A DNA stretch of 64,000 nucleotides. Source: a virus. Its lineage: Duplodnaviria > Caudoviricetes. Made by a program: the position numbers and the translations under genes. The DNA lies in the IMG/VR virus record IMGVR_UViG_3300037461_000711, positions 25,319 through 89,318 of that record, one strand, 5' to 3'. Positions 5,813-59,447 of the stretch are shown here, in pieces; position 1 is the stretch's first letter, and every line of letters starts with the position of its first letter. A model generated the notes under the pieces. That model had not been told where the DNA came from and searched no databases. It saw nothing but the letters and a program-made list of their open reading frames with translations.

Positions 5813-6156
5813 AGTAGCTTCTTCCGAATTACGAGTTGTTTCTTCTTTTTGCGAATCACCAATTGTTTCTTTGTCTTGATCTGAATGGAGGCTGCTTGGC
5901 CCCCTACGGTGCAGTAGCAAATCTCCTTTCTCTGCCGTGCTTGGCAGACCTTGAGGTAGACCCATTGGTCCCTATCGCCACACCAGAAGATGTTAGTGGG
6001 TTCAAAGGCTTCGCAGCTTTCGTCTCCCTCATTGACGATGCTTTCTTTTACCGGGCAAACTCGGTTGATGATGATGGTCTGTTTGCCCCCGCCGATATTG
6101 ACTTTCTCTTCGACACGTTCCGCACCGTGGTACTTCAGGCACAGTTGGCAAAACAT
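5809..6156 (-). CDS. Cys-rich protein with duplicated KQLVIRKK tag
   Basis: Multiple Cys pairs; ends KTKKQLVIRKKKKQLVIRKKLL. Confidence 0.65.
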   Translation of the reverse strand: MFCQLCLKYHGAERVEEKVNIGGGKQTIIINRVCPVKESIVNEGDESCEAFEPTNIFWCGDRDQWVYLKVCQARQRKEICYCTVGGQAASIQIKTKKQLVIRKKKKQLVIRKKLL

Positions 6157-6160
6157 GGCT

Positions 6161-6394
6161 TCACCTTATGGTTTTGTGTGCGATGTTTTTCTCAAGCCAC
6201 TCTTTGTTTCTGCGTTCCTTCAAGAGGTGAGTAACCAACCACGAGAAAGAACGCTCCCTTCGAGCGGCATACTCTTTTGCCCATTCGATTAATTTAGCGT
6301 CGGATGAAAAGCTGGCTATCACCTTGCTCGATTTTGCCGATATGGTCTGGTAAATGTTCGCGTTCTTTTCTTTCTGAATGCCTTTTTTTCTCAC
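6161..6394 (-). CDS. ribbon-helix-helix (Arc/CopG-like) DNA-binding protein
   Basis: KVIASFSSDAKLIEWAKEYAARRERSFSWLVTHLLKE has the RHH strand-helix-helix pattern. GTG start at 6394 after SD GAAGGGGGAG. Confidence 0.6.
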   Translation of the reverse strand: MRKKGIQKEKNANIYQTISAKSSKVIASFSSDAKLIEWAKEYAARRERSFSWLVTHLLKERRNKEWLEKNIAHKTIR

Positions 6395-6414
6395 AGATAG
6401 CTCCCCCTTCAAAT

Positions 6415-6474
6415 AAATATTTTCTCGTGAAACAAATATTTTCTCGTTAAAATTTTCTCGTAAAATTTTCTCGT
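6415..6474. repeat. four tandem AAA(T)ATTTTCTCGT-type direct repeats, candidate operator
   Basis: Copies at 6415-6428, 6434-6447, 6449-6461 and 6462-6474, directly upstream of the RHH gene. Confidence 0.85.
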
Positions 6475-6537
6475 TGAAAATCTGAAGACCCTTATGTTTC
6501 GGGTTTTACGCAATCTTAATAATGATTAATAGAAATG

Positions 6538-6897
6538 TCAAGGGGCTAATTTTTGCAGGGTGGTGAGGGTTTTTCTGAGGGCTTCGAGAAACCTGATTTC
6601 TTCTTCTATCCATTCAACGGTTTTGGGCTGGTCAGAAAATATTTCTATCGTGTCGTTCTCAAGGTGGATTTTTCTGAGGTTGATATCCGATACGGCATCG
6701 GCAATTCTGCGGTTTTCAGAAACCATTTTCTGAAAGCGGGTGGTGGGTTCTTTCGTTTCGGGTTCCAGGTTGATGGGGGCAATGCTGTTTTGAATTCTGT
6801 CGATGTTGCTTGAGATGATTCGAACTTCGTGATCCTGTAATGGTCTGTCAATCGGTACTACCATGTTCAGGTTGATCTTGATTTCGGGGTTCGTCAT
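6538..6897 (-). CDS. hypothetical protein
   Basis: 119-aa ORF with SD AGGAGG. Confidence 0.6.
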   Translation of the reverse strand: MTNPEIKINLNMVVPIDRPLQDHEVRIISSNIDRIQNSIAPINLEPETKEPTTRFQKMVSENRRIADAVSDINLRKIHLENDTIEIFSDQPKTVEWIEEEIRFLEALRKTLTTLQKLAP

Positions 6898-7249
6898 TTT
6901 CAGCCTCCTTCAATAGGTTGATTGTGCTGGTTCTGATCTGCCAGACTTCGGCCCAACGATTATCACAAAAGCAGAAGCGTATGCCGGTATCCACAAACAG
7001 TTCGGTCTTTCTCAGGTCTTCAATCGTGCTTCTCATTCTGCCGCATGAGCATACGACAAACTGGTTCTTTTGAAGACAAATTCTGTCATAGCCTGAAATC
7101 TCATAGTTGCTGTCGATTCTGGTATAGGGATGACCCTTACCCTGGATGCCGACCCCTACTATGGATGACGTGTCGCCTGTATATAGTACGTGAAGCTCTA
7201 CGGGCTGCTGCTGGAGAACGATTTGGCCGATGGCTCTTTTTATGGACAT
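6848..7249 (-). CDS. hypothetical protein
   Basis: Start placed at MSIKRAIGQ (7249) after a GGGGG SD, just downstream of the sRNA. Confidence 0.45.
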   Translation of the reverse strand: MSIKRAIGQIVLQQQPVELHVLYTGDTSSIVGVGIQGKGHPYTRIDSNYEISGYDRICLQKNQFVVCSCGRMRSTIEDLRKTELFVDTGIRFCFCDNRWAEVWQIRTSTINLLKEAENDEPRNQDQPEHGSTD

Positions 7250-7261
7250 GGATTTGCCCCC

Positions 7262-7370
7262 TAAAAAGTGAATTGTCGCGGGGCTTCGAAACCGGGGACC
7301 ACCCCCGGTAAGGGAGGTACATCGTGGGCTAACGCACGATGGAAGCCCCGCGACAAACCTTGGATTTGTA
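7262..7370 (-). ncRNA. candidate three-way-junction small antisense RNA
   Basis: Perfect 15-bp closing stem (7273-7287/7342-7356) and two 7-bp inner hairpins (7291-7309, 7320-7341). Minus-strand unpaired segments are CGUUAGCC (loop) and UACCUCCCUU (junction). A promoter lies immediately upstream and a UUCACUUUUU tail follows. Ends are estimated. Confidence 0.75.
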
Positions 7371-7376
7371 ATGGCA

Positions 7377-7406
7377 ATTATACGGCACCAGAGCATCCAA
7401 AGTCAA
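7377..7406 (-). promoter_or_regulatory. sigma70-type promoter for the sRNA
   Basis: Minus strand TTGACT (7401-7406)-18 nt-TATAAT (7377-7382); predicted start site near 7370. Confidence 0.75.
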
Positions 7407-7487
7407 CGATTCATAGCTACCACCAAATTGAGTAACCCATTAATCCCGACCACGAACTCCTTCTTATTCGTGATCGGTGTTGATGGG

Positions 7488-7655
7488 TTAATCCGTTGCT
7501 TCGACGAAAAACTCGCATAGGTGCTCCTCAAACATATTGCATTCGAGCGAGCATTCAATGCAAGCTTCGTCCATGAGGGTTTTGGCTTCTGGGTCCGCAT
7601 TGTCGATGTAGTTTGCACAGTTGATGCATTGTTCCGAGTAGCGGCTGAATGTCAT
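7488..7655 (-). CDS. small Cys-rich protein (55 aa)
   Basis: MTFSRYSEQCINCANY...CIECSLECNMFEEHLCEFF; ATGA-coupled to the upstream gene. Confidence 0.55.
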   Translation of the reverse strand: MTFSRYSEQCINCANYIDNADPEAKTLMDEACIECSLECNMFEEHLCEFFVEATD

Positions 7656-7930
7656 GAGCATCTCCATTTCTTGACGGTGCCGATGATTTGGTCTCCATCC
7701 ATTAGAAGGGTGCTGCTGCCGATTGCCCTGGTATTGTGCATGAGAAGAAAGCAGGGCTTCCAACCCGTTGTTACCCCCACGTATCCACGCTTTGTTTCAC
7801 CGTATCTTGTTTTGACGATAATGCGCTGTCCACTACAGAAGTAGGGTATGAATTGCTTTGACAGGTCTGAATCGTCAAAATTGGGGATACGGCTTTTTTT
7901 CTCCCTCAACCAATCTTCAAAATTTCTCAT
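7652..7930 (-). CDS. hypothetical protein
   Basis: 92-aa ORF, ATGA-coupled on both sides. Confidence 0.6.
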   Translation of the reverse strand: MRNFEDWLREKKSRIPNFDDSDLSKQFIPYFCSGQRIIVKTRYGETKRGYVGVTTGWKPCFLLMHNTRAIGSSTLLMDGDQIIGTVKKWRCS

Positions 7931-8208
7931 GAGTCACCTCCAACGGCTTCTCTTACTGCAATTTCGCAGTATTCAGCGATGCCGTCTTCCCCTTTCGCTC
8001 GCAGGGCTTCACATGCGAGCATGAGGCGCTCCAGAAGTTTGGGGCTTGCGGCGATCAGTTGAGCGTTTCTGTCCAACTCACAGAAATCTTTGAAGTTGGG
8101 GTTTCCATACTTGTCTTGCCCGTAAGTGAGATAGAACGCCCCACTTGGAGTGACAATGCTTCTGCCAGCTTGCAACTTCCATGGCCCAGGCGTGTGTTTG
8201 GTTCTCAT
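7927..8208 (-). CDS. hypothetical early protein
   Basis: MRTKHTPGPWK..., an N-terminus type common in small phage proteins; preceded by the conserved leader. Confidence 0.7.
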   Translation of the reverse strand: MRTKHTPGPWKLQAGRSIVTPSGAFYLTYGQDKYGNPNFKDFCELDRNAQLIAASPKLLERLMLACEALRAKGEDGIAEYCEIAVREAVGGDS

Positions 8209-8291
8209 AGCTACCTCCCTTGGTTAGTGGTTATCCAAGGCTAATGCCTTGTGTCTATGCTCAAAGTTTCCCTTGAGCATAGGGCAAAACA

Positions 8292-8705
8292 TTACCAATT
8301 GGTTATGCGTTTTCCGGTTGCCGTACAACGCATGGGGGATGCACAAACCTTACATATTTCATTTAATCTGCAAACTAATTCGTCAAATGGTTTAAGATAG
8401 GTTTTATCGGAAAGCTGCACAACACGATTTTGTTTGTCAAGAAAAAAAGCGGAACCCATTGCCATAACAAATTCATTCAGGTTTGGATGTTTCGATAAAA
8501 TTTTTCTAGCTTCTGATTCGATCAATTTGTAGGAAATAATGTCGATCTGTTGACAATGAAAGTCGATAGTTTCCAGGGCTTTTATTTTGTTTTCTACATT
8601 GGGTTCTAAAATTGAGAGAATAAGCTCCCTATTGTCTTCAAAAAAATCTCTGTCGCTATCATAATATCCAGAAAAATCTGAGTCTTTTCTCTTTTTAATT
8701 TTCAT
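8292..8705 (-). CDS. hypothetical early protein
   Basis: 137-aa ORF with the conserved leader. Confidence 0.7.
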   Translation of the reverse strand: MKIKKRKDSDFSGYYDSDRDFFEDNRELILSILEPNVENKIKALETIDFHCQQIDIISYKLIESEARKILSKHPNLNEFVMAMGSAFFLDKQNRVVQLSDKTYLKPFDELVCRLNEICKVCASPMRCTATGKRITNW

Positions 8706-8815
8706 AGCTACCTCCCTTGTTTGTTGTTAGCTGCATTAGGGGCGTTTTATCGTGCCCTTTATCGTAAGGCATGATTACCCATGCCTTACTGTAAAAAACA
8801 CGCATACAAGCCCTC

Positions 8816-9526
8816 TCAGTCGTCCTTTTTGCCTAATTTAATCAACATTTCGGGTTCAAATTTTGAAACATGGGCAATAATGTTTTCTGGTTTGTCTTGC
8901 GACTTGAACGACCAATCACATCCATGAATTACATTGCCTTTACAATTCAGATATAATTCTCCCTCGTTGAATGAAATCACGTCTTCTTCCCAAATATTAT
9001 AAAGAAACGGTGTTTTTTCGACAACTTTTTTACCCCAATTTTCAGCCCGTCCTTCAGAGATACAATGCTCATAATCGGGTTTCCATTTATCGTATTTGTA
9101 GTGTACTGTCAGATTATTTTCTTCGGCAAAATCTAAAAGCTTATGGGCGTCCGGGTTGCCACAGTGAAATTGATCGTTCGAAATATCCACGCTTGAAATT
9201 TCGTTATCATCACACCAAGCATGTAGACGTTCCCAAACATTTAAGAATTTTCTTGTGATCCGTTCAGCATTGGTTGCAATGTAATAATTGCCAACTCCTA
9301 CGCTGTGATTTCTGCAAGCGCCAATGAACAGACCAATAATTTCCGGTGCAAGAGTGGGTTCCCCACCAGTGAATGTGACAGTATCCACGTACTTGAAGTG
9401 CCCAAGAAGTGTAGATATATTCTCGTAGGTCTGTCTCATCCGTTGTCGTTGACCTCTAAGACAATGGTAGCACTCCAGGTTGCACCATCTTGTGACCTCA
9501 ATGATTACGCTCCCTTGTAATTTCAT
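8816..9526 (-). CDS. radical SAM protein
   Basis: CxxxCxxC (CNLECYHC), GGEP motif, IATNA strand; conserved leader. Confidence 0.85.
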   Translation of the reverse strand: MKLQGSVIIEVTRWCNLECYHCLRGQRQRMRQTYENISTLLGHFKYVDTVTFTGGEPTLAPEIIGLFIGACRNHSVGVGNYYIATNAERITRKFLNVWERLHAWCDDNEISSVDISNDQFHCGNPDAHKLLDFAEENNLTVHYKYDKWKPDYEHCISEGRAENWGKKVVEKTPFLYNIWEEDVISFNEGELYLNCKGNVIHGCDWSFKSQDKPENIIAHVSKFEPEMLIKLGKKDD

Positions 9527-9638
9527 AGCTACCTCCCTTGTTTGATTGTGATTGTTAGCCCAGATTCAATTAGAATCCGTGACCGGGCAAAAATATTTTC
9601 TCGTTGTTTTTGCCCGGTGGCTGATCCTAATTCTCGAC

Positions 9639-10574
9639 TTATTCTTCCACTTCAACTTTTCTCACAGACATGGCCCAATGGATGTCGAACTGTCCAACAT
9701 CAGTGAGCAAAAACAGGTGATCGAATTTGTACGGCAGAATTTCCTTTGCCAGTTTCAGGCATTTTTTGGGGGTATCATCCTGACCCCGGTGAAATCCATT
9801 TTCGAACCGGGTGCAGTATGACTCTTCGCTTTCCAGACACTTGAACCCGGCAGCTTCGACGTGTTCTTGCATCCAGTATGGTAGTGCTTTGTTAAGCGAA
9901 TTCAGGTAATGCTCGATCACGTCATCTGCTCCATCCTTTTTCACGCATTCGTGACAGAGTATTTCGCAGTCCGAAACCCATACCCATGAAGTTTGCCAAC
10001 CGTAGCTGTCGGCGGAAGTTCTGACGGCTTTGTAACAATTACAGCAACCAGTCCATTCGTCTGACCATTCAATCGAAATATTGCCTTGAAAGAATTTGTC
10101 GATCCAATCGCAAAGCTTCTTCATTTTGGGTGGGTTCCAGTTGGCGGCGATTGTGGGTATGTCGTCATAGCCCATTTCCGAAACACCATTGTAGAAGTCT
10201 GCATATTCGCCAATCCGGTCGATGTATTCGAGAATGTCTGAAATCGAAACTTTCTCCCACCTGCGGCGTATTCTTTTCTCGTACTCCATACGAGCAGTAT
10301 TGGATGCCGCTTTCAAAAATTCTATCTGCATGGGGGTGAGATCCTCTACTGGCACGAACTCCCGAATGCCGGGCAATTCGATTTGAACTTCTTTCCAGAG
10401 CAGTTCGGCGGTTGTTTTTTCGGCTTGAGCAAATCGGAAAAGCTCAAGAGGGTTGTTATGAACATAATATTGACGTCCATCTCTGCCGATAATAACCACC
10501 TTTCCCGGCAAATTTGCATACCGCAAAGCGATAGCAAACTCTCCATCGGTTTTCACCTTGAAGTCTTCGTACAT
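9639..10574 (-). CDS. hypothetical early protein (Cys motifs CCNC, CHEC)
   Basis: 311-aa ORF with the conserved leader. Confidence 0.7.
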   Translation of the reverse strand: MYEDFKVKTDGEFAIALRYANLPGKVVIIGRDGRQYYVHNNPLELFRFAQAEKTTAELLWKEVQIELPGIREFVPVEDLTPMQIEFLKAASNTARMEYEKRIRRRWEKVSISDILEYIDRIGEYADFYNGVSEMGYDDIPTIAANWNPPKMKKLCDWIDKFFQGNISIEWSDEWTGCCNCYKAVRTSADSYGWQTSWVWVSDCEILCHECVKKDGADDVIEHYLNSLNKALPYWMQEHVEAAGFKCLESEESYCTRFENGFHRGQDDTPKKCLKLAKEILPYKFDHLFLLTDVGQFDIHWAMSVRKVEVEE

Positions 10575-10667
10575 AGCTACCTCCCTTAGTTAGATGGTTG
10601 AATGTTAGCCCAAGGGTTAATCCCTTGCGTTTGCCCATAGCTCCTTGTCTATGGGCAAGACAAAAGA

Positions 10668-10868
10668 TTAAAGACTTGTCACGAATTCGTATCCTATGCC
10701 GTCGATTTCAACGACATACCCCGCGAAGTCTTCCCTCTGAACCCAGAGTTCTTTCTTCTCCGATTCGTCGATGAGAATGATTTCTCCATCTTCGTTCGGC
10801 CCTTGGTAGACTTCGTACTCGGTGTCTTCCAATGGTTCCCTGGCCTGACTGCCAATCTGCCGAATCAT
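10668..10868 (-). CDS. small acidic protein
   Basis: 66 aa, SD AGGAG, rich in Glu/Asp. Confidence 0.6.
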   Translation of the reverse strand: MIRQIGSQAREPLEDTEYEVYQGPNEDGEIILIDESEKKELWVQREDFAGYVVEIDGIGYEFVTSL

Positions 10869-10879
10869 TTTTGATCTCC

Positions 10880-11074
10880 TCAGTCGTTAAAGATTTGCAT
10901 GAATGCTCCGCATGCCTTGCACTTGTAAGTCCATTTAATAATCTCGCCAGACTTGTCCCGAAGGGGCTGATCTAACGTGAAGAATGTCTGACATACGGCA
11001 CACTTCATCCCGGTGTGTTCGAGTGTTGACATTTCGGTGACGTATCCGTTGTCGGTCTTTGTCCAGATGGTCAT
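10880..11074 (-). CDS. small Zn-ribbon protein
   Basis: CAVC...CKAC; conserved leader. Confidence 0.7.
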   Translation of the reverse strand: MTIWTKTDNGYVTEMSTLEHTGMKCAVCQTFFTLDQPLRDKSGEIIKWTYKCKACGAFMQIFND

Positions 11075-11172
11075 AGCTACCTCCCTTGGTTGGTGTTATC
11101 CCCCTCTTGTTTTGGGGGTAAAGTCTCAAGTCTGTCCACGAGATAAAAATTTCTCGTGAACAGGTTCAGGCT

Positions 11173-11769
11173 TTACTCCTTTTCATCGGGCAGAACAAGT
11201 TCGCCGGTTTCCACAGAGAATACGGGGTACGGGGCTTTGCCATCCTCAAACCAATCGTGGCTGAAGCAATAGCCCTTGGCGTATCCAGCGTTTTCGGCGT
11301 GTGATTTGTACGCTTCTCCATAAGCATTGGGTGCTATCTCAGAAACAGTTTTCAACTGCTCCTTGACTTCACCCACCGGCTTGAACGGATTCATGAGGTA
11401 AACAGCACCCGGCGCACACGGAGAGCAGAACTGTGCATAGGTGAAATATAGCGACTTTGTAATAAATATGTCGCCGTCATCCCCGCATTCTGCCGTGTAC
11501 TCACCATCGTCCACGTACCACGAAACAGGTTCGAGCATGTCAAAGTCTCCATCGTCGAATTCGTGCCCACAATCGGGGCAAGTCTCCGGCACTTCTTGGC
11601 CGATTTCCCGCTCGCATTCGGGGCAGTAGTAGACGTAGTTGGGTTCCGAACTGTCGGCCCACGCTTGGAGAACCTCATTCTGGCTGATTACCCCATACCG
11701 AATGTTTTTCTCGTGGTCGATGTTGGAAATACCTCTGCCATAGTCGATACCAGCATACGGTTCCTTCAT
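11173..11769 (-). CDS. hypothetical early protein with Zn ribbon
   Basis: CPEC...CPDC and later CSPC; conserved leader. Confidence 0.7.
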   Translation of the reverse strand: MKEPYAGIDYGRGISNIDHEKNIRYGVISQNEVLQAWADSSEPNYVYYCPECEREIGQEVPETCPDCGHEFDDGDFDMLEPVSWYVDDGEYTAECGDDGDIFITKSLYFTYAQFCSPCAPGAVYLMNPFKPVGEVKEQLKTVSEIAPNAYGEAYKSHAENAGYAKGYCFSHDWFEDGKAPYPVFSVETGELVLPDEKE

Positions 11770-11876
11770 AGCTACCTCCCTTGTTGGTTGTTGTTGTTAG
11801 CCTAAGAGCGTATCCTTAGCTCTTAATCCAAGGCTGTCATGCCTCTATATACGGGATGACAGCCTTGTGTTAAAAA

Positions 11877-12134
11877 CTAAGCGTGAGCGGCGCGGGCAAC
11901 GATCCAGAGGTCGAGAACCTCTTCCAGAGATTTGCCGTGGCGCATGGTGCCGGGGTGATCCGTAGTGTAGCGGGTCAAGTGACTGAGAATAGAAGTCCTC
12001 AGAAAACCTCCCGGCTCGACTTTCGACGTATCGAATCCACCAAAGTCGGTGATGAAATCCAGGTAATCGAAGATCGCATCGAGACTGTAGGGATTCGACG
12101 TGAAAAGCCTGGGCATTCCATACACGTTTAACAT
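11877..12134 (-). CDS. hypothetical early protein
   Basis: 85-aa ORF with the conserved leader. Confidence 0.65.
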   Translation of the reverse strand: MLNVYGMPRLFTSNPYSLDAIFDYLDFITDFGGFDTSKVEPGGFLRTSILSHLTRYTTDHPGTMRHGKSLEEVLDLWIVARAAHA

Positions 12135-12208
12135 AGCTACCTCCCTTGGTTAGTTGTTAGCACTCCATTCAGCCCATGACTTCCCATCATGGGCTGTAGC
12201 AATGCTAA

Positions 12209-12295
12209 CTAAAAGGAAAACATAAATACAACCATGAAAAAGATACAGACAAAAATCAGAATCCCACCGATGATGTCCTTGGCTTCTTGTGTCAT
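12209..12295 (-). CDS. 28-aa single-pass membrane peptide
   Basis: Manual translation MTQEAKDIIGGILIFVCIFFMVVFMFSF*; ATGA-coupled to 12292..12510; below the ORF-track cutoff. Confidence 0.55.
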   Translation of the reverse strand: MTQEAKDIIGGILIFVCIFFMVVFMFSF

Positions 12296-12510
12296 GCCGT
12301 CCTCACAAAAGAGATTGATTTGTGATTGCCAACGCGGTCGATCCAGTGAACATCGACCGCATCCCCAATTTCGGCCATGTCAAAGACCGGATCATACGTG
12401 ACGTGCTTATAGCCCAAGCACTTGACCAGTCCTTTGATGTAAGTGTAGACCTGACCGATTTCAATTTCCCCGAAGATGGCACTCCAGAATTTCATGGGTC
12501 TGTTTTTCAT
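12292..12510 (-). CDS. hypothetical early protein
   Basis: 72-aa ORF with the conserved leader. Confidence 0.65.
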   Translation of the reverse strand: MKNRPMKFWSAIFGEIEIGQVYTYIKGLVKCLGYKHVTYDPVFDMAEIGDAVDVHWIDRVGNHKSISFVRTA

Positions 12511-12581
12511 AGCTACCTCCCTTTGTTAGTGGTTAGCGTTCAAGTCCGTGCTCAAAGTTTCTCTTGAGCACAGGTTCAACA

Positions 12582-12842
12582 CTAACTTTCCCGGCGTTTG
12601 ACAAGATAATACTTGCAATCGCACATGATAGCCTGATGTCCACAGATTGGGCATCGCTCGTTATCACAGCCGGGATGATGAGGCTTGCCGAGTTTTGCTC
12701 TACAGTCATGGCAGCGTTCCTGATCGCAGAGGTTAGAAGTGTCCCTTTTGTAAAGCTTTTTGCCTTTGATTTTCTTGGCATGAGTCCAGATACAACCATC
12801 TGAAGTCAACATTTCCTGCTTGCAAAAATCGCAAATTGCCAT
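12582..12842 (-). CDS. Cys-rich small protein
   Basis: The leader places the start at MAICDFC (12842); CDFC, CHDC, CPIC and CDC motifs. Confidence 0.7.
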   Translation of the reverse strand: MAICDFCKQEMLTSDGCIWTHAKKIKGKKLYKRDTSNLCDQERCHDCRAKLGKPHHPGCDNERCPICGHQAIMCDCKYYLVKRRES

Positions 12843-13007
12843 AGCTACCTCCCTTGGTTGGTGTTTACTGAATCGTTCCATCTGCTCTGTGCAGGAGGGT
12901 CGCGCCATTACCACTTCTCCCTGCACAGGCACATCTAACGATTCATAATGATTACCTCTCTTTCCCAAGAAATTTCTCGTGGCAGAGCCTTCCAAGAAAC
13001 TTCTCGA

Positions 13008-13916
13008 TTAGTTCCGCAGATGGTCGAAATGCCTTGCAAGCACAAACGCCATCTGCTCTTCCCGCTCTTTTCTGCCCGATGAGTCCTTGACTTCGTGGGT
13101 GATCCACTGAGTCAAGATGCTATTCATCGTCCAGGCAGAAACAGGTTTGCCGGTGTTGAACATGCTCTCCAGGGTGATGCCGGTTCCGGTTTCGGGCAAG
13201 GCCAAAATCTTTTCGGTCTGCTTTTCCGAAATCGGCAGCGCCTCAAAGATTTCCTCGGCCTGGGCCTTTTCGATCATGAGCTTGGTCCATGAGCGCCACA
13301 GTTCGTGCTCTTCTTCCATGGTCTTGATGCAAGTGTTCAACTGCTTGACCACGGCGTCCATACTCAGACCTTGCCGATGCTTCCGTTTGAAATGCTGGAG
13401 AACCTTGGTCGATACCATGCCGTTTGAACAGCGGAAGACCACTGCCCCGCCCGTCCCGGTCAATTGGGTCTGCGAGTCATACGAATTTTTGAATCCGATG
13501 AAAGGCTCGATGACGTCCTTGCCGATCTTCAACTTCTTGGCTTCCTTCATCTCGGGGAAGAACGCCCGAACGAATGCCTTGGCTCCCTGGTCGTACAGGT
13601 TCACCTTGAATTCAGGCACTCCCCAATGCGACCAGTTCGAAGTGACTTCCCGCATGAGCATGTGCGTTACCACCTCATGCGGGACGAGCTTGTAGTGATC
13701 GGTCACGAAGTTGGGGAAGACCATGCCCTCATCTCCGTTGTCGATCACGACCGCGTTCCACTTCTCGGCCAAGTGCTCGGCACCGTTCCCGATCCAGACC
13801 GCATCGAGATAGGCATTGGGCCATTTGACGTCCTTAAATTGGGCGTGCATTTTGGCTTTGATGTCCTCCACGTGAGCGGCATCTTCCAGAAGCTTGCTGA
13901 GTTCTTCCTGTGTCAT
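13008..13916 (-). CDS. DUF932-like protein
   Basis: The leader places the start at MTQEELS (13916); FKNSYD...VFRCSNGMV is the DUF932-type signature. Confidence 0.7.
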   Translation of the reverse strand: MTQEELSKLLEDAAHVEDIKAKMHAQFKDVKWPNAYLDAVWIGNGAEHLAEKWNAVVIDNGDEGMVFPNFVTDHYKLVPHEVVTHMLMREVTSNWSHWGVPEFKVNLYDQGAKAFVRAFFPEMKEAKKLKIGKDVIEPFIGFKNSYDSQTQLTGTGGAVVFRCSNGMVSTKVLQHFKRKHRQGLSMDAVVKQLNTCIKTMEEEHELWRSWTKLMIEKAQAEEIFEALPISEKQTEKILALPETGTGITLESMFNTGKPVSAWTMNSILTQWITHEVKDSSGRKEREEQMAFVLARHFDHLRN

Positions 13917-14026
13917 AGCTACCTCCCTTGGTTTGGTGTTATGAGGTGGGCAAATCCCCCTCGGTGAAAGCACGAGAATCCAGAGAAATATTTTCTCGTA
14001 AAAATTTTCTCGTGCTTCCAACGAAA

Positions 14027-14728
14027 CTAATTTGCCGATATGCGACTTCTTCCAGAGGCAAGGTTCAAATTGTTTCCATCAGCATAACCACGTGCAAGCG
14101 CAGAATTGTCCCCAACAGAGCGGGGTCGCATCTTCCCAAGCTTGGGGTAAACTTCATTTATTTTTGCTTGCACCAAAGCTTTAGAAATTACGACCAAATC
14201 CCGGCACGTGTTGTCTAAGGCATCGTTCACTTTTTTGTACAAATCCTCAAGACGCTCGTTCACGCGACAAACCATTCCGTAGGCATAGGCGCGTTGCTTC
14301 CTGATGCCTTTGGGGTAGGCTTCCTCGGCCCATGAGCCTATCTCTAATCGCAAACGCGAAAAGAAATAGTCGATCATCTCCAAATCATCTTTAGAACCGA
14401 AGAAACGCAGACTGCTCCGATGATTATGAACGATGATTTTTGAATTGAAGCACCGGGCAATCCCTGAACCGAGGTGAATCTCCCAATCGGCTTCCTTGTC
14501 GAACAAGTCTTCAAAGGTGTCCTTGACCTGATCGGTAGCCTTTTGGGGTTTCGGTTCCTTTGACCGCATCTCCAGCGAACTGATTTGCCATTTGAGCATG
14601 AGCTTTTCCGCTGCAAACTGTGCAGCATTGCGCTCACCTTCCGTAGCAGCCGGGTCCGCAGCCAATTGCATACACTTCAAAATCTTCTCCATGGCTTGCT
14701 CTCTTAATACGTGATGAGATGAGTCCAT
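14027..14728 (-). CDS. DUF2786-like protein
   Basis: EKILKCMQLAADPAATEGERNAAQFAAEKLMLKW matches the DUF2786-type N-terminus; leader-defined start at 14728. Confidence 0.7.
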   Translation of the reverse strand: MDSSHHVLREQAMEKILKCMQLAADPAATEGERNAAQFAAEKLMLKWQISSLEMRSKEPKPQKATDQVKDTFEDLFDKEADWEIHLGSGIARCFNSKIIVHNHRSSLRFFGSKDDLEMIDYFFSRLRLEIGSWAEEAYPKGIRKQRAYAYGMVCRVNERLEDLYKKVNDALDNTCRDLVVISKALVQAKINEVYPKLGKMRPRSVGDNSALARGYADGNNLNLASGRSRISAN

Positions 14729-14780
14729 ACTAGCTACCTCCCTTGTTGGTTGTGGGTTTCTCTCAGTAGACCATGGCGGG

Positions 14781-14888
14781 GTGAACGGCATTCAGTGAGT
14801 GAACGACATTCAGTGAATGAGGTAAATTCACTAACTGAATCTGATTCAGTGAATGAACGATATTCACAGAATGAACGATATTCAGTGA
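14781..14888. repeat. six tandem 18-bp units built on TGAA-N5-TTCA
   Basis: Units start at 14781, 14799, 14817, 14835, 14853 and 14871; consensus RTGAACGAYATTCAGTGA. Confidence 0.85.
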
Positions 14889-15040
14889 ACGAAATTTCAT
14901 TCACTAAATACAATTCATTTTTGCCATAGTCTACTATCACCTTGTTAGCCATTTTATAGGTTTTAACCTATACGTTGGCGCACTATCAAGCGAGTCGTGG
15001 TCGTGCCGTGATAATGCGCCAGATATAGCTTAAAACTGTT

Positions 15041-15517
15041 TTATGCCGCTTTTTTGTCTACTGCCTTGCTTGACCTTGCGATTTTTGCGGCCGGTGTCAG
15101 TTGGCCTTGTAGGCTATGGCCTTTCGGCCATACTCGCATGTATATCTGATGATTCTCGAAAACGGCCAAATTTTCAGAAATCAACCGTGCTTTACATTTC
15201 GAGTGTGGGCCGATCGGTTGACCATCAGGTGCAATAATTGCGGCCGCTTGATTCATGGTAAGGGGTTTTTCGCATATTGCATTACAGAAAATATCAGTAT
15301 AACTGCCTTGAGCATAGCCCCAAAAACCCTTGGCTTTCGTCACTTTCGGTTGGGAATTCTTTTTTGCTTTTTTGGCAGTTTGAACTGCCTCAACGCAAGC
15401 TTTGAATTGTGCGTTGAATTTGTTTTTACAGTCAACGCAAGCTTTATGCTCAATAGTGCGTTTACCAGTACCAAAAAGCTTGCAATCAAAAAGCAAATTG
15501 TTTTTGTCGATAGCCAT
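15041..15517 (-). CDS. basic, Cys-containing hypothetical protein
   Basis: 158 aa, SD AGAGGT, Lys/Ala-rich. Confidence 0.65.
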   Translation of the reverse strand: MAIDKNNLLFDCKLFGTGKRTIEHKACVDCKNKFNAQFKACVEAVQTAKKAKKNSQPKVTKAKGFWGYAQGSYTDIFCNAICEKPLTMNQAAAIIAPDGQPIGPHSKCKARLISENLAVFENHQIYMRVWPKGHSLQGQLTPAAKIARSSKAVDKKAA

Positions 15518-15699
15518 GTTTTTACCTCTCTTTTAGTGTTAGTTTAAGGTTATTTAGCAAAAATTAACAGAATGCCGAAAACAATAGACAATAGCCAAAA
15601 AACCAAGTCTACTTTAATCAATAATACCTCTCTTTCGTTATAGGGTTTTTGGGAATTCTTTAGGTAATAGCATGTAATAAAGACTAGGCCAACATAAAG

Positions 15700-15999
15700 T
15701 TAAATACAGTAAAATGTATTATTACAATCGTGGCCAAAAACTTGTTTAACTCTTGCATTTATAACTTCGTCAACATCAACATCAATCTCATTATTCAAGT
15801 TCGAAAGTTCACATAAAGTATTGTCTAAAATGCCTTGATTCAATTCAAGTATAGTTGAAATTTCATAAAGTAAATCGTTCGGTAGATTTTCGGCATTATT
15901 AGTTGAATCATTATCAATTAAAATTTGTTGAAGAGTAGACAAGGCAAAAAACATTAAATCACCGGCAAGCTTAACTTTATCGCTTATAGGTTTTCGCAT
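15700..15999 (-). CDS. AT-rich hypothetical protein
   Basis: 99 aa; preceded by the second leader class ending TAGGTGAT. Confidence 0.55.
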   Translation of the reverse strand: MRKPISDKVKLAGDLMFFALSTLQQILIDNDSTNNAENLPNDLLYEISTILELNQGILDNTLCELSNLNNEIDVDVDEVINARVKQVFGHDCNNTFYCI

Positions 16000-16027
16000 T
16001 TTATCACCTATTTTTAGTTGGGAATTT

Positions 16028-16282
16028 TTATTTGTTTTCGTAATACTTCAAAAATTTTTGAATTTCATTTTTTGAATTATTGGGCATTAAATTTATATCT
16101 GAATTCAAAATCATATCAGCGAAAGTCAACAACATTTCATTCAAATTTGCATTTTTGTTTTTGCCTTCGAGAATGTCAATTATTAGGTTTTTGCAAAGCT
16201 TAGAATAGTCTGAAATATGGGTAAACATATTATCATATTTTTTCAAAACGTCGTTTAATTCATCTGCTATTGTTTTCGGCAT
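16028..16282 (-). CDS. AT-rich hypothetical protein
   Basis: 84 aa; same 30-nt leader as 15700..15999. Confidence 0.55.
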   Translation of the reverse strand: MPKTIADELNDVLKKYDNMFTHISDYSKLCKNLIIDILEGKNKNANLNEMLLTFADMILNSDINLMPNNSKNEIQKFLKYYENK

Positions 16283-16382
16283 TTAATCACCTATTTTTAG
16301 TTGGGAATTTTTATTGCCTAGTCTTTATTACATGCTACCACCTAACCATATTTAGTGTCTTTTTAGTATCAAGCGATTAAGG

Positions 16383-16565
16383 TTATTTTGAAAAGTAAAA
16401 TTTACGTTTCAACTCTCGATCATAGCAAATACATTCTATTCTGTGACACAAAAAACAAGCTTTTTTAGTTGGGAATTTTTTAAATTTAAAATAAGGTTTT
16501 TTGCTTGGTTTTTTAGGTAAAAATTTAAGAAAAGTCGAATTCGGCATATTGTAAGCGATAGGCAT
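16383..16565 (-). CDS. small basic hypothetical protein
   Basis: 60 aa, SD TAGGTGAT, flanked by a 24-bp inverted repeat pair. Confidence 0.4.
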   Translation of the reverse strand: MPIAYNMPNSTFLKFLPKKPSKKPYFKFKKFPTKKACFLCHRIECICYDRELKRKFYFSK

Positions 16566-16600
16566 AAAATCACCTATAAGCTTGATACTAAATAGACACT

Positions 16601-16653
16601 AAAAAAAACATAGCCCACTATCAAACCGAAATAAAAGCTTGATAGTGGGCTAT
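16601..16653 (-). terminator. intrinsic terminator
   Basis: 15-bp stem ATAGCCCACTATCAA/TTGATAGTGGGCTAT (16610-16653) followed on the minus strand by G and a run of T. Confidence 0.7.
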
Positions 16654-17226
16654 TTGGCTAACACCATAAGGTAGGTAGTAGCTATGATGCCTAGCGAAAA
16701 TTCCCAAAGTCAATTAAACGGGTTTTTAAACCTAGCCTTATGATGCGGCATATTGCATTGCCTATTGTCACGATTTTACATGCTCAATTAGGCAATTACC
16801 AAACGTACAGAATAGCAGTGCAGTGCTAGGTAACCGTTTGACTTTGGCCTAGGCTATGTAGAATCACTTTTCACCCTGTACCACTGAAGCACAAAAAAGC
16901 TTTACCGACCTATCGAACTGTTGCCCGTAGGCAACTAGGCAAGTAAATCAAGCTTTAGGTGATCGGCTTTTCGTCGGGAATTTTTTTCGGCTTTACCATC
17001 GGCATTTAGCGGCCAGCTCTCAGATAATCATTGTGCTGGTATTGCTTCGGCTAATTTCTTCGATCAATTAGGCAAGTCAATTAGAAAAAAACCGCGCCGC
17101 ATGCCTACTCTATGCCTACTCAAAAGCCCTATGTCAAGCGATAGTTGCGTGTTACGGGTTTTCAAACCGTTTGCCGTTATTGGCCTATCGACTCAGCCGA
17201 AAACATACAATTTCAGCCTTACCTAT

Positions 17227-17254
17227 AGACTATCAAAAAAAAACAGAATGTCAA
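17227..17254 (-). promoter_or_regulatory. sigma70-type promoter (leftward)
   Basis: Minus strand TTGACA-16 nt-TAGTCT with an extended TG. Confidence 0.5.
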
Positions 17255-17259
17255 GAGAA

Positions 17260-18370
17260 AAAAACATTTTTTTAAAATATTTATTTTTATAAAAAAATAA
17301 ATTTCGGCATGTTTTTTGACTATTTCAAATTTAATGCCAAAAAATCAAAAAAAGCGAAAAACGACGATCTATTTTTTTGAATAGTAGGGTATGGCTAAAA
17401 AACAAAGTGTCATAAAACGCTTCTAATTGCGTTTAAAACGATTTTTGATTATGGCATGATACTTGCTAACTACATGAATTTACAAGCAAATAAATAAATC
17501 AAATTAATTTAATGAATTTCATTCAGTGGCATACTCTATGCAATTGGCAGATAACATGCCGAATTAAATAAATCGAATTCATACTATGAATCCTATTCAG
17601 TATATGAATCCCCTTCATTAATTAATTCTGATTAAATAAATAATCATGCCAAATAAATTAATTCTCATTCAAAGATTAAACCAGATTCAAATTCTAAATT
17701 AAATTCGTTTTCTAATTTTCATTTATTTTATTTTTCAAATTCAAAAATTAATTCCACCTCATTCTCTAAACGTAATTCAGAAATTAATAATAATTCATTT
17801 TCTGATTCCACTTCATTTCTTAAATCAGATTCAGATTATTAATAAAAATTATAACTTGATTCCACTTCACAAAATTAATAAGATTCACAATCTAAATCTG
17901 ATTCAGAATATAAATGTGAATTATAATCTGAAAGCAATTTATAAAATAAATCACAGTCAATTTCTAAATTGATCTAAGACACTATCTATGGTTCACCTAC
18001 TAAATACCATTCACTAACTAAATAAACCCCATAAAACAAACGAGATTCAGTCAGTATAGCCAGAGTCAGATACTATATGTGGGTCATTAATTAAATAGGG
18101 TTCTATTTATTGAATGAGAGAAGAGAGAATGAATGAGGTTCATTTAATTAATAGACTTCTATGGGATGACGATACGTTTTATTTATATATAAATAATATT
18201 TTATGAATGATATTCATTCGTTAGATACCATAGTATATAGTGAATAGCATTCATTAAATAAATAAGACCAATAATATGAATTATGTAAACTAATTAAATG
18301 AATGATATTCAGTAACCATCAGCCAATTATTGAATATCATTCAGTAAATAAATGAATGTCATTCAATAAA
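17260..18370. other. very AT-rich noncoding region with nine TGAAT-N4-TTCA palindromes (candidate origin, operator field or genome end)
   Basis: No ORF-track entry starts inside it. Palindromes at 17513, 17587, 17605, 18130, 18204, 18241, 18299, 18331 and 18353. Confidence 0.7.
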
Positions 18371-18757
18371 TAGCCCCGCCTCAGTCCATCTCGCAAGGGG
18401 GGTCCAGGCATCGCGCAATAGGGCCAACACCACAATTTTTTTTAGCTATAGAAATTTCAAGGTACTCATTATTCTCCTCAGCCCCCCATCTCACCACAAT
18501 TTTTTTCTGTCTAAAAATTCTATAGAACCCTTTTGTTTTAATTAACCCCAGGAACCCCCATAAATAGAATCTACCCCTATACGTGCCCGAAGCTTAATTT
18601 AATTTAATGAGAACCGAATAAAAGGAACCGGACTATAGAAATTAAATCAGGCAGACCCCCCCTCTTTGATCTGGCGTTCTATATAATAAGGTAGGGGTTA
18701 GGGTTTCGGAGTGTAAAAATTAATCAGGTTGGTCGAAAAATAATTTTACGATTTTTC

Positions 18758-18786
18758 TTGATTTTTGATTATTCGTGATTTATTCT
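18758..18786 (+). promoter_or_regulatory. sigma70-type promoter (rightward; probably leaderless first gene)
   Basis: TTGATT-17 nt-TATTCT, with ATG at 18794 seven nt after the -10 box. Confidence 0.55.
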
Positions 18787-18793
18787 CTACGAC

Positions 18794-19090
18794 ATGAAAA
18801 TCATTTATGGCAAAAACAAATCGCTTATGGCTTCTGTCAACTGGTCGCCGGTTGAGTCGATAATCTACACGAAGGGAGTTCTCACTGCTTTTACCGGCAA
18901 ACCCCCCACCTATTTATATTTGAGTTTGGATGCTCTGAAAGTCATTGAGGCTGAATTGTCATGGATTCATGGTGAAACCGTGACCAAGTTAGATAAAATT
19001 GTTGAAATGAAGGTGATGAAGCTGCCGGAGTGCCAAGGCATCATTATTTTAGCCTATGAAGAATTCGAGATGGAGGTAAAAAATGATTAA
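18794..19090 (+). CDS. hypothetical protein
   Basis: 98-aa ORF, first gene of the rightward arm. Confidence 0.6.
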   Translation: MKIIYGKNKSLMASVNWSPVESIIYTKGVLTAFTGKPPTYLYLSLDALKVIEAELSWIHGETVTKLDKIVEMKVMKLPECQGIIILAYEEFEMEVKND

Positions 19091-57503: not shown

Positions 57504-59447
57504 ATGACAATATCATTTATAAACTTCACCTCTGGAGGTAGCACTGCCGCAGCATCCATAACCATCAATAAGCCCACCAGCACCCAACAAGGCGATTTGA
57601 TGGTTGCTTTAATTATTGTAGAAGACGCAACAGATCGAATCAACATAGCTCCTGGTGCCGCACCTTCGGGGTGGTCACTTCTTCTTAACACTGCTCTTTC
57701 TACCAGAATCCATCGACAATATGTTTACAGCAAAGTTGCCGGGGCTTCAGAACCGGCTTCGTATACGTGGTCGCTCAATTCGTCTGATGAGGTTTGTGGA
57801 GGCATTTCTACCTTTCGTGGTGATGGCAGTTTATCAGTTACAGCCAACCTTGCCCAAGTAAACAACTCAACTACGGCAAACTGCACGGCCCCAAGTGTTT
57901 CTGTTTTAATTGGGGATATGGTCATTCATTGTGCCAGTTCGATGTATGGCACAACTTGGTCTCCCCCGACAAATTACACCGAATGTTTAGACTATCGCAC
58001 AGGTACGGGTTCGGGTAATATAAGTTGTTCCATGCACCGAAGAGTTTGGCCCTCATCCGGCACAACGGGTACTCAAATAGCTGTTGCGGCCAATGCTGAT
58101 TACAATGTGGGGTCACACATAGTTTTGCATGAAACCCCTCTACCTACGACTTCCACCACAACATCATCATCGTCTTCCACCACGACTACAACAGTTGATC
58201 TTGGGGCTGCCAGTAGTATCCCATTCAAAGATGACCCTACTGAGTTCAGGTCTGATGGGGCTACGTTTTACCCTCATATACCTTCAAATGCTACGACCAG
58301 CACCACCACAAGCTCCACTACTACGAGTACCACTACCACAAGCTCATCAACCAGCAGCACGACAAGTTCAACGTCAACGTCATCTTCCACGTCATCTTCC
58401 ACAACCATAACCATTGGTGTAACTCAAACAATCGACATATTTTTTAAGGACACCGTTGATGAACGCTGGCAGGATGAAGATGTTCAATTTGTACCTCATG
58501 AAGGTATAGGGGTTTGCACGACAAGTTCCACTACTACTACCTCTTCGAGCACGAGTTCATCCAGCACCACGTCTTGTACTACAACGAGTTCATCGTCTTC
58601 GACCACTACAACTTGTTCCACTACCAGTTCATCGTCTTCGACCACTACGAGTTCAAGCAGCAGTACCACAACGAGTTCCACCACTACAACGAGTTCAAGT
58701 TCGTCTACAACGAGTTCCACTACTTTTTCGACTTCATCGACCACGAGTAGTTCCACCACTACGTCGAGTTCATCATCTTCGACGATTACCCCCTTAACCA
58801 CTCATAGCACGGTCAGCAGCACTTCGTCTTCCACCACAACTTGTTCGACCACAACCTCAAGCAGCACGAGTAGTTCCACAACGCTATCGAGCACTTCAAC
58901 TTCTACGAGTTCGAGTACCACCACGTCGAGTTCGACAACAACCACGAGTTCGAGCACGAGTTCTACCACCACAACGAGTTCGACAACGTGCAGTTCAACT
59001 ACAACCTCCACTACTTCATCGTCAAGTACGTCAAGTTCGAGCACGAGTTCGAGCACCACAACGTCTTCAACAATGTCCACCACCACAACGACCTATCCAG
59101 GGTTGTATATGGGGTCGGTGTGTTTTGGTCATGTAACGGCGATTGAAGAGCTTTGGTCTAAACCGTTTGCCGGTAATTGGTCTGGTTCTGGCACAATTCG
59201 GGGGTCTGGCGATTCTGAAGAGATCGGGCTTCATACCGGCGACAGTATGGAAATGAACGCGCCTTGGCGAATTGGTGATACTCGAAAACGGGTTGTGCTG
59301 AAGTTGAATAAGTATGGTTCCGGCGATGATTTCGTGATAAAATACAAGAAAGGAACAACGATAGCAGAGTGCAATGGCAGCGAGTGGTTGCTTTACACAG
59401 GCCCGTTTACCCACGTAGGGTATATTCGGGTAAGAGTGGAAAAGTAA
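57504..59447 (+). CDS. mucin-like Ser/Thr-rich protein with globular N- and C-terminal domains
   Basis: N-terminal beta domain (TINKPTSTQQGDLMVAL...PSGW), three S/T tracts separated by acidic spacers, globular C-terminus; no signal peptide. Confidence 0.8.
   Translation: MTISFINFTSGGSTAAASITINKPTSTQQGDLMVALIIVEDATDRINIAPGAAPSGWSLLLNTALSTRIHRQYVYSKVAGASEPASYTWSLNSSDEVCGGISTFRGDGSLSVTANLAQVNNSTTANCTAPSVSVLIGDMVIHCASSMYGTTWSPPTNYTECLDYRTGTGSGNISCSMHRRVWPSSGTTGTQIAVAANADYNVGSHIVLHETPLPTTSTTTSSSSSTTTTTVDLGAASSIPFKDDPTEFRSDGATFYPHIPSNATTSTTTSSTTTSTTTTSSSTSSTTSSTSTSSSTSSSTTITIGVTQTIDIFFKDTVDERWQDEDVQFVPHEGIGVCTTSSTTTTSSSTSSSSTTSCTTTSSSSSTTTTCSTTSSSSSTTTSSSSSTTTSSTTTTSSSSSTTSSTTFSTSSTTSSSTTTSSSSSSTITPLTTHSTVSSTSSSTTTCSTTTSSSTSSSTTLSSTSTSTSSSTTTSSSTTTTSSSTSSTTTTSSTTCSSTTTSTTSSSSTSSSSTSSSTTTSSTMSTTTTTYPGLYMGSVCFGHVTAIEELWSKPFAGNWSGSGTIRGSGDSEEIGLHTGDSMEMNAPWRIGDTRKRVVLKLNKYGSGDDFVIKYKKGTTIAECNGSEWLLYTGPFTHVGYIRVRVEK

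Follow-up and report, generated by a model that had tools for sequence, protein, structure and literature searches.

Why do eleven unrelated genes of one phage begin with the same short sequence? The genes lie on the minus strand of a 64,000-nucleotide stretch of viral DNA (Caudoviricetes; called the window here), which is the right-hand 64 kb of the complete, 89,318-bp virus record IMGVR_UViG_3300037461_000711, a genome with 127-bp direct terminal repeats. A preliminary description of the window had noted a common leader before these genes, and had proposed that it provides coordinated control and could also serve as homology for gene shuffling. We found that the core of the leader is the exact complement of an unpaired segment in a predicted phage RNA encoded just downstream of the genes, that related phages carry cognate pairs of leader and complement, and that mosaic junctions between this genome and a close relative fall at the leader or the start codon. 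We therefore consider it probable, with some reserve, that the locus is an early operon of standardised translation units, in which the leader core is an RNA address and the same sequence is the crossover point of cassettes. It appears to combine two roles, a handle for shared control and a joint for recombination.

A leader before the start codons of eleven genes

The exact 13-mer AAGGGAGGTAGCT occurred eleven times, each time on the minus strand, between positions 8209 and 14744. The whole 89,318-bp genome held no further copy, even when one mismatch was allowed. With up to two mismatches there were 12 matches, compared to a mean of 1.05 in shuffled sequences, and none of 100 shuffles reached 12. 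Among 73 unrelated viral and 69 prokaryotic loci, 10-mers beside start codons reached at most 2-3 copies, against 11 here. The leader is 14-16 bases long, with the invariant block AAGGGAGGTAGCTA and an invariant 10-nt core, AAGGGAGGTA; identity ended sharply at the 14-16-nt block, and the flanking sequences diverged. The eleven shared copies of the preliminary description were thus exact, but the spacer that it had written as (xx) before the start codon was not there: ATG followed the leader directly in ten copies, and AGT intervened only in the first (14732). The copies are as follows, all on the minus strand.

14732..14744, leader copy 1, AAGGGAGGTAGCT followed by AGT-ATG; precedes the DUF7168/DUF2786 gene 14027-14728
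13917..13929, leader copy 2; precedes the DUF932 gene 13008-13916
12843..12855, leader copy 3; precedes the Cys-rich 86-aa gene 12582-12842
12511..12523, leader copy 4; precedes the 72-aa gene 12292-12510
12135..12147, leader copy 5; precedes the 85-aa gene 11877-12134
11770..11782, leader copy 6; precedes the 198-aa Zn-ribbon-like gene 11173-11769
11075..11087, leader copy 7; precedes the 64-aa Cys-rich gene 10880-11074
10575..10587, leader copy 8; precedes the 311-aa gene 9639-10574 (phrog_35561)
9527..9539, leader copy 9; precedes the radical SAM gene 8816-9526
8706..8718, leader copy 10; precedes the 137-aa gene 8292-8705
8209..8221, leader copy 11; precedes the 93-aa gene 7927-8208 (phrog_1273)

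The leader includes an extended Shine-Dalgarno (SD) sequence, and the question arises whether ribosome binding alone could account for its conservation. GCT at positions -3 to -1 was present in only 4 of the 120 other genes of the genome, and the start codon of the leader genes lies 5 nt after GAGG, a shorter spacing than the genome mode of 6-8 nt. The SD sequences of the other genes were ordinary and varied, and mostly stood 6-8 nt before the start. Given the rarity of GCT and the shorter spacing, conservation of the leader appears to exceed what ribosome binding needs, as had been suggested. The leader bases AGCTA and the first A do not pair with the canonical 16S tail, which may not be that of the host. 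The leader was confined to the non-structural array. It was absent from the late genes, namely the block with terminase, head and tail genes (the plus-strand genes there include terminase, major head protein and tape measure), and from the replication genes on the minus strand downstream of the array (helicase, primase, DNA polymerase, clamp, clamp loader and a RecA-like protein).

Between the units lie ten linkers (within 8222..14026, minus strand), each with one or two strong hairpins followed by an unpaired A/C-rich tract and often a G(G)CTAAC box.

13930-14026, 12856-13007, 12524-12581, 12148-12230 and 11783-11876, minus strand, first five linkers
11088-11172, 10588-10667, 9540-9638, 8719-8815 and 8222-8291, minus strand, last five linkers

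The internal gaps measured 58-152 nt, leader excluded. All ten folded into one or two long hairpins, with z scores of -3.7 to -6.7 that none of 200 shuffles equalled, and in each of the ten the last 14-25 nt, the A/C-rich tract, stayed unpaired in local folds. The A+C content at -32 to -17 was 74%, compared to 56% for 119 other genes (p=0.0008), in agreement with the A/C-rich, unstructured stretch reported earlier; the tract often begins with GGCTAAC or GCTAAC. No run of U and no terminator followed the hairpins in the ten gaps, and no sigma-70-like promoter was found in any gap by a scan that scored 11/12 at 7406-7377. With neither promoter nor terminator in the gaps, the array reads as one operon. 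A search of the region 6000-19000 against Rfam (E<=1) gave no match to any family, C4 included.

A candidate RNA partner and its counterparts in relatives

The sigma-70 match at 7406-7377 stands in front of a candidate RNA gene, and what appears to be a degenerate copy of the leader precedes both.

7255..7372, minus strand, predicted anti-leader RNA immediately downstream of the array, folded as a three-way junction in which UACCUCCCUU stays unpaired
7377..7406, minus strand, predicted promoter of the anti-leader RNA, TTGACT-N18-TATAAT, 11/12, the best sigma-70 match in 6000-19000
7412..7424, minus strand, decayed leader GGTGGTAGCTATG, immediately ahead of the RNA gene's -35 box; a 3-codon open reading frame (ORF) follows it

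The predicted fold of the RNA has an energy of -53.9 kcal/mol (z -4.6) and leaves the junction segment UACCUCCCUU unpaired; this segment is exactly complementary to the leader core AAGGGAGGTA. The predicted duplex between the junction strand and the leader was worth -17.4 to -18.7 kcal/mol for all eleven leaders; 119 other ribosome-binding sites (RBS) averaged -8.5, and the canonical 16S anti-SD on the same leader reached a weaker -12.7 kcal/mol. A hairpin loop of the RNA, CGUUAGCC, holds GUUAGCC, the complement of the GGCUAAC box. The decayed leader has counterparts at the same place in two relatives, GGGTTTAGCTAT (L196, about 8339-8350) and GGTTTTAGCTAT (L118, about 511-522), which indicates that the RNA gene occupies a cassette slot.

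Relatives were identified by their helicases, whose homologues define a group of contigs of roughly 88-92 kb. IMG/VR held one close complete relative of 89,207 bp (helicase 62% identical; loci L196 and L293), and the closest helicase, 66% identical, came from the 31-kb contig P0002. Other routes were unproductive: a scan of IMG/VR with exact 16-mers returned single matches at chance level, megablast of the array region against phage records returned none, a scan of prokaryote genomes gave neither a prophage relative nor a clue to the host, and no tRNA genes were found in the window. The close relative has ten leaders, with AAGGGAGGTA exact in nine, all forward, all within its array and none elsewhere. 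It keeps the core and GCTATG, with 0-4 nt of varying sequence between them, so that the part fixed across both genomes is the part that would pair with the RNA. Homologous anti-leader RNAs were found in this relative (z -5.6) and in the short contig L118. Compensatory changes were read directly from the three homologous sequences: in L196 and L118 all three helices are kept paired through changes on both strands, and both the GUUAGCC loop and the CCUCCC strand persist. As a separate observation, GCT(A) before the ATG is invariant in both genomes despite the variable insert directly upstream of it in the relative. Together with the last bases of the core it makes up the palindrome TAGCTA, and neither rRNA pairing nor pairing with the RNA accounts for it.

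In more distant relatives (helicase 35-43% identical) the array follows the same plan with other leaders, and three of them, L157, L040 and L130, each carry an anti-leader of their own between the array and the helicase gene.

L157, leader TAAAGGAGGTAAGAAATTATG (GGAGGTAAGA); anti-leader in a 14-nt loop, UCUUACCUCCAAUU (UCUUACCUCC)
L040, leader AAAGGGGGACTTAAAC (GGGGACTTAAAC); anti-leader unpaired, GUUUAAGUCCCC, between two hairpins
L130, leader AACGGAGGTAAGAAA (AACGGAGGT); anti-leader in a loop, UUUCACCUCCGUU (ACCUCCGUU)

When every RNA was matched with every leader, each was best or equal-best on the leader of its own genome, with longest perfect matches of 10, 9-10, 10, 12 and 9 nt compared to 4-8 nt off the diagonal; the exception was a leader sequence common to L157 and L130. 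The exact complement in the window and these cognate anti-leaders lend comparative support to the proposed coordinated control. The linkers of two distant relatives had further features. The whole linker of about 95 nt is a repeat in L040, and three pairs of its hairpin (11 bp, UUCG loop) have changed in a compensatory way between paralogous copies. Six linkers of L140 (297-6611, plus strand) are built alike, from a hairpin capped by GNRA or UUCG, then a second hairpin and then AAAGGAGAAAGAG-ATG; the invariant element there is the loop region of the second hairpin, GTCCCAAGTC, and not the SD, and no RNA complementary to it was found in the locus.

These data suggest how the array could work. 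A unit would consist of a hairpin linker, an unpaired A/C-rich tract and an extended SD leader fused to the ATG, and the one or two hairpins probably insulate neighbouring cistrons and protect 3' ends. The core AAGGGAGGTA would be the docking site for a phage RNA transcribed from its own promoter downstream of the array. This RNA would present a perfect complement in its open junction, and its predicted binding to the leader is stronger than that of the canonical 16S tail. As it accumulated, the RBS of the eleven cistrons would be masked together, leading to a coordinated translational shut-off and possibly to decay of the early set. The leader copies would then be constrained to match one RNA, and their length would suffice for pairing by the phage RecA-like recombinase; under this constraint, and with this length, they would evolve in concert and act as crossover points, so that genes may enter, drop out, change position or be substituted as cassettes between leaders.

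Several observations weigh against this reading. The 3' end given for the RNA is provisional and the relatives have no terminator behind it, and the RNA may therefore be the 5' part of the downstream mRNA. A complement of 10 nt is expected about once by chance in 89 kb, and one unrelated match does exist; it is thus structure, position and co-variation that carry the argument. The GGCUAAC box is found 5' to the core, just as the matching loop is 5' to the junction strand, so that the two contacts cannot make one continuous helix. The invariant GCT(A) beside the ATG falls outside the pairing, and in a 140-nt context the SD sequences of the leaders were no more open than those of other RBS (0.49 vs 0.47, p=0.42). 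Among the relatives, L140 has a leader array and no anti-leader was found in the 21 kb examined, the full-length fold of L040 leaves the complement partly paired, and the fold of L157 is weak (z -1.6).

Cassette turnover at the leaders and competing explanations

Comparison with the close relative showed that gene order and content are not fixed, whereas the leader core is conserved. The Cys-rich 86-aa gene is third in the array of the window and last in that of the relative; an unrelated gene of 242 aa takes the place of the radical SAM gene there, and the relative lacks the 64-aa and 93-aa genes. A 66-aa gene (10668-10868), which follows the 64-aa gene in the window, has a leader in the relative and its own SD here. 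Linker modules are also re-assorted relative to genes: linker 8803-8701 shares 82% identity with one found between two different genes in the relative, which exceeds the conservation of the flanking genes. The relative further carries a leaderless ORF of about 140 aa (L293, 14890-15340, plus strand), coupled to the end of its homologue of the 137-aa gene and without a counterpart here. A map of DNA similarity between the two genomes revealed four mosaic junctions, each within 4 nt of a leader or an ATG.

12854, junction in the first bases of leader 3
11071, junction one base beyond the ATG after leader 7
8722/8701, junction with leader 10 as the only overlap of two different homology blocks
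8206, junction at the ATG after leader 11

These positions, with the differences in gene order and content, give comparative support to the idea that genes are shuffled at the leader. The spacers point in the same direction. All eleven in the window have the same short form, those of the relative differ among themselves, and distant relatives have 6-8 nt; the direction of this change is based on outgroups only. The uniformity here, set against the variation in the relative, indicates concerted evolution within this genome. A tyrosine recombinase (PF00589) was absent from the complete genome, in a search whose control was positive in 14 of 14 genomes. With no such enzyme and a RecA-like protein present, homologous exchange between identical leaders would be the simplest mechanism.

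Could such exchange explain the leader without any RNA? The block might be a strong RBS within a repeated intergenic element, spread or homogenised by recombination and lacking a partner in trans, with the complement in the RNA a by-product such as the relic of an inverted leader. The uniform derived spacer, the re-assorted linkers and the junctions at leaders imply that recombination alone can keep copies identical; the entire L040 linker is a repeat, the L140 array lacks a detectable anti-leader, and a decayed leader adjoins the RNA gene. However, identity ends abruptly at the 14-16-nt block while the flanks diverge, and the conserved part equals the RNA-paired part across two genomes. The complement, moreover, is unpaired amid helices kept by compensatory changes and co-varies with the leader in four lineages. 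We regard an explanation by recombination only as unlikely.

A second possibility is that the leader is recognised by a protein, either a translational repressor or activator like RegA of phage T4 or a nuclease that cuts the SD, like T4 RegB. Both are precedents for a shared feature in early start regions (PMC3014915), the invariant GCT(A) is left unexplained by RNA pairing, and many proteins of the array have no known function. On the other hand, Pfam and PHROG scans of about 35 proteins, without a dedicated RegB search, returned no RegA, RegB or other RNA-binding family, and a protein partner would leave the co-varying complementary RNA segments unexplained. We judge this explanation improbable.

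Two further readings were rejected. Each block could be a promoter for a phage RNA polymerase in the style of T7 or T3 (...AAGGGAG...), the genes being separate transcription units ended by the upstream hairpin. The leader bears a superficial resemblance to the 3' half of T3 and T7 promoters, which has GGGAG at the start site, and a hairpin does stand before every copy. We nevertheless hold this to be very improbable: ORFs of more than 800 aa encoded only DNA polymerase, tape measure, tail or Ser/Thr-rich proteins and offered no candidate for a single-subunit RNA polymerase, a PF00940 search was empty (its control was also silent), the hairpins have no U-tracts, and conservation is strong downstream of the would-be start and weak upstream of it, the reverse of T7-type promoters. 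An integron-like array of promoterless cassettes, folded recombination sites and a site-specific recombinase would fit unrelated genes in one orientation separated by imperfect hairpins, the observed turnover and the resemblance of the GGCTAAC/GTTAGCC box to attC core sites (RYYYAAC/GTTRRRY), but we give it almost no credence, since PF00589 is absent from the complete genome with positive controls, the box is not paired as the base of a stem in most gaps, and the junctions lie at leader or ATG, away from the box. The operon of leader-addressed translation units described above is the reading that we retain.

Cargo, flanking elements and comparison with known systems

The genes carried by the leaders are unrelated to one another, and the earlier annotations largely hold: one protein combines DUF7168 and DUF2786, one is DUF932, one is a generic radical SAM protein, three are Cys-rich, and five have no informative match. 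Those described as Zn-ribbon proteins have Cys motifs and weak matches only. In NCBIfam the radical SAM protein falls in no subfamily; protein-atlas searches of two cargo proteins were uninformative (scores <=0.84, low-confidence models), and the literature ties no function to DUF932 or DUF2786. These results spoke neither for nor against the earlier suggestion that the cargo serve in host takeover or anti-defence. Single-protein searches with DUF932 and the helicase found nothing, and the DUF932 alignment found only the one close relative. DUF2786 and DUF932 recur in the arrays of the distant relatives L157, L130 and L134, where the remaining cargo differs.

The genes downstream of that of leader copy 11 overlap one another and lack leaders. 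A 28-aa hydrophobic ORF (12209-12295, minus strand), also leaderless, overlaps the stop of the 72-aa gene (ATGA), and the close relative has a similar small ORF (L293, about 11224-11313) with an IIGG motif followed by a hydrophobic run. Two adjacent small genes in an AT-rich segment (15700-15999 and 16028-16282, minus strand) have a second shared leader in two copies, a nearly identical upstream sequence of about 30 nt (AAAAATTCCCAACTAAAAATAGGTGAT.AA before the ATG).

Directly upstream of the first leader lies a field of short repeats.

14781..14920, minus strand, TGAA-N5-TTCA repeat field with a period of about 18 bp

The field is homologous in the close relative (14925-14782 matches L293 8880-9052) and probably serves the array operon as operator or entry region; no clear promoter could be recognised in it. 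A second element, the CGAGAAAWWT box, occurs in six copies where one is expected, always in minus orientation (6451-6473, 11147-11156, 12970-12979 and 14003-14012, minus strand; also 2370-2379). An Arc-like repressor gene (6161-6412, phrog_3180) has two tandem copies upstream of it, and hairpins of the array contain three others. In the relative, CGAGAAATTT occurs seven times. The box may be a second, transcription-level layer of control, or an RNA motif.

The closest known parallel is the start-associated sequence (SAS) of Cluster K mycobacteriophages, which the preliminary description had correctly cited. SAS is a 13-bp asymmetric sequence that includes the SD and occurs in 11-19 copies in one orientation, a few bases from mostly ATG starts and only in the non-structural half of the genome; it has conserved positions beyond those that pair with rRNA, and about half of the sites have inverted repeats upstream (Pope et al. 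2011, PMC3203893). The upstream element, ESAS, is now read as a SigA-like promoter with an operator (PMC11373665), and the role of SAS was still described as unknown in 2024 (PMC11373665) and 2025 papers. The leader resembles SAS in its eleven exact asymmetric copies on one strand, 0 nt (ten copies) or 3 nt (one copy) before the ATG, in a non-structural region. It differs in that the SAS consensus GGGATAGGAGCCC is unrelated, as are the phages, and the array has no near-DNA match in the phage collection; the leader is an analogue of SAS rather than a member. Unlike ESAS, the linkers contain no promoter, and unlike SAS, this phage group offers a cognate RNA partner and evidence from junctions.

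Three other systems share part of the design. The promoter early stem-loop (PeSL) elements of T4-like phages are short, conserved regulatory stem-loop modules between variable early genes, where homologous exchange brings about indels and replacements (PMC2839356, PMC4122927). Here too a stem-loop is found in 10 of 10 linkers (z -3.7 to -6.7) and four indel or replacement junctions lie at leader or ATG, but PeSL is a composite of terminator and promoter, while the conserved part of our linkers is a ribosome-binding leader and no promoter was detected. The c4 RNA of P1 and P7 and the sar RNA of P22 are small structured phage RNAs that pair around an RBS and block translation (PMC12197685). The predicted RNA would likewise expose a segment complementary to an RBS; c4 and sar address one gene, ant, whereas a single RNA would address eleven identical sites here, and there was no Rfam C4 match. 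In T4, RegB cuts GGAG in early intergenic regions (extended consensus GGAGRAYARAA) and RegA represses about 30 early mRNAs at their start sites (PMC3014915). The leader is similar as a shared early start-region feature by which a class could be switched off together, and different in that RegB and RegA are proteins with loosely conserved sites, while the site here is exact and the candidate effector is an RNA.

An observation in Cluster K itself bears on this comparison. We reproduced the SAS pattern in Adephagia (16 forward sites), and K1 phages have a single SAS in the opposite orientation (PMC3203893). In Adephagia (JF704105; L384 38600-38730, equal to record positions 58599-58729) genes 92 and 93 are separated by 430 nt of non-coding DNA, and this reverse SAS lies there. 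When the copy is read in the sense of transcription, CCUCCUAUCC falls in the apical loop of a long hairpin, part of a two-hairpin element (z -7.2), and ten contiguous bases of the loop are complementary to SAS. The hairpin is possibly an anti-SAS RNA. The element was present in 131 mycobacteriophage (Cluster K) records, with seven compensatory pairs among seven that were sampled and the loop kept in five of the seven. Strict co-variation of the loop failed in DarthP, which has 15 exact standard SAS and three more with one or two base differences and a loop changed at two positions, and in SirPhilip, whose loop has no complementarity to SAS. We regard the anti-SAS hairpin as a testable lead and not as a result.

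With an exact leader, a co-varying candidate RNA and mapped junctions, the leader-RNA phage group is a cleaner case than the SAS of 2011. If confirmed, one small phage RNA would switch off a whole class of genes through their shared RBS, and the shared site would make the early region a rack into which new genes can be plugged. The arrangement is similar to the standard parts of synthetic biology (an insulator, a standard RBS and a riboregulator) and could be borrowed directly. We advance more tentatively, as a possibility short of a settled view, that a clade of uncultured phages of about 90 kb carries riboregulated cassettes, in which one RNA masks all leaders, the leader is the crossover point and the address co-evolves within each lineage. 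If this is true, the pairing of leader and RNA address would let a gene be acquired and brought under regulation in one step. The SAS of Cluster K mycobacteriophages may follow the same logic, which provides a concrete and testable hypothesis for them.

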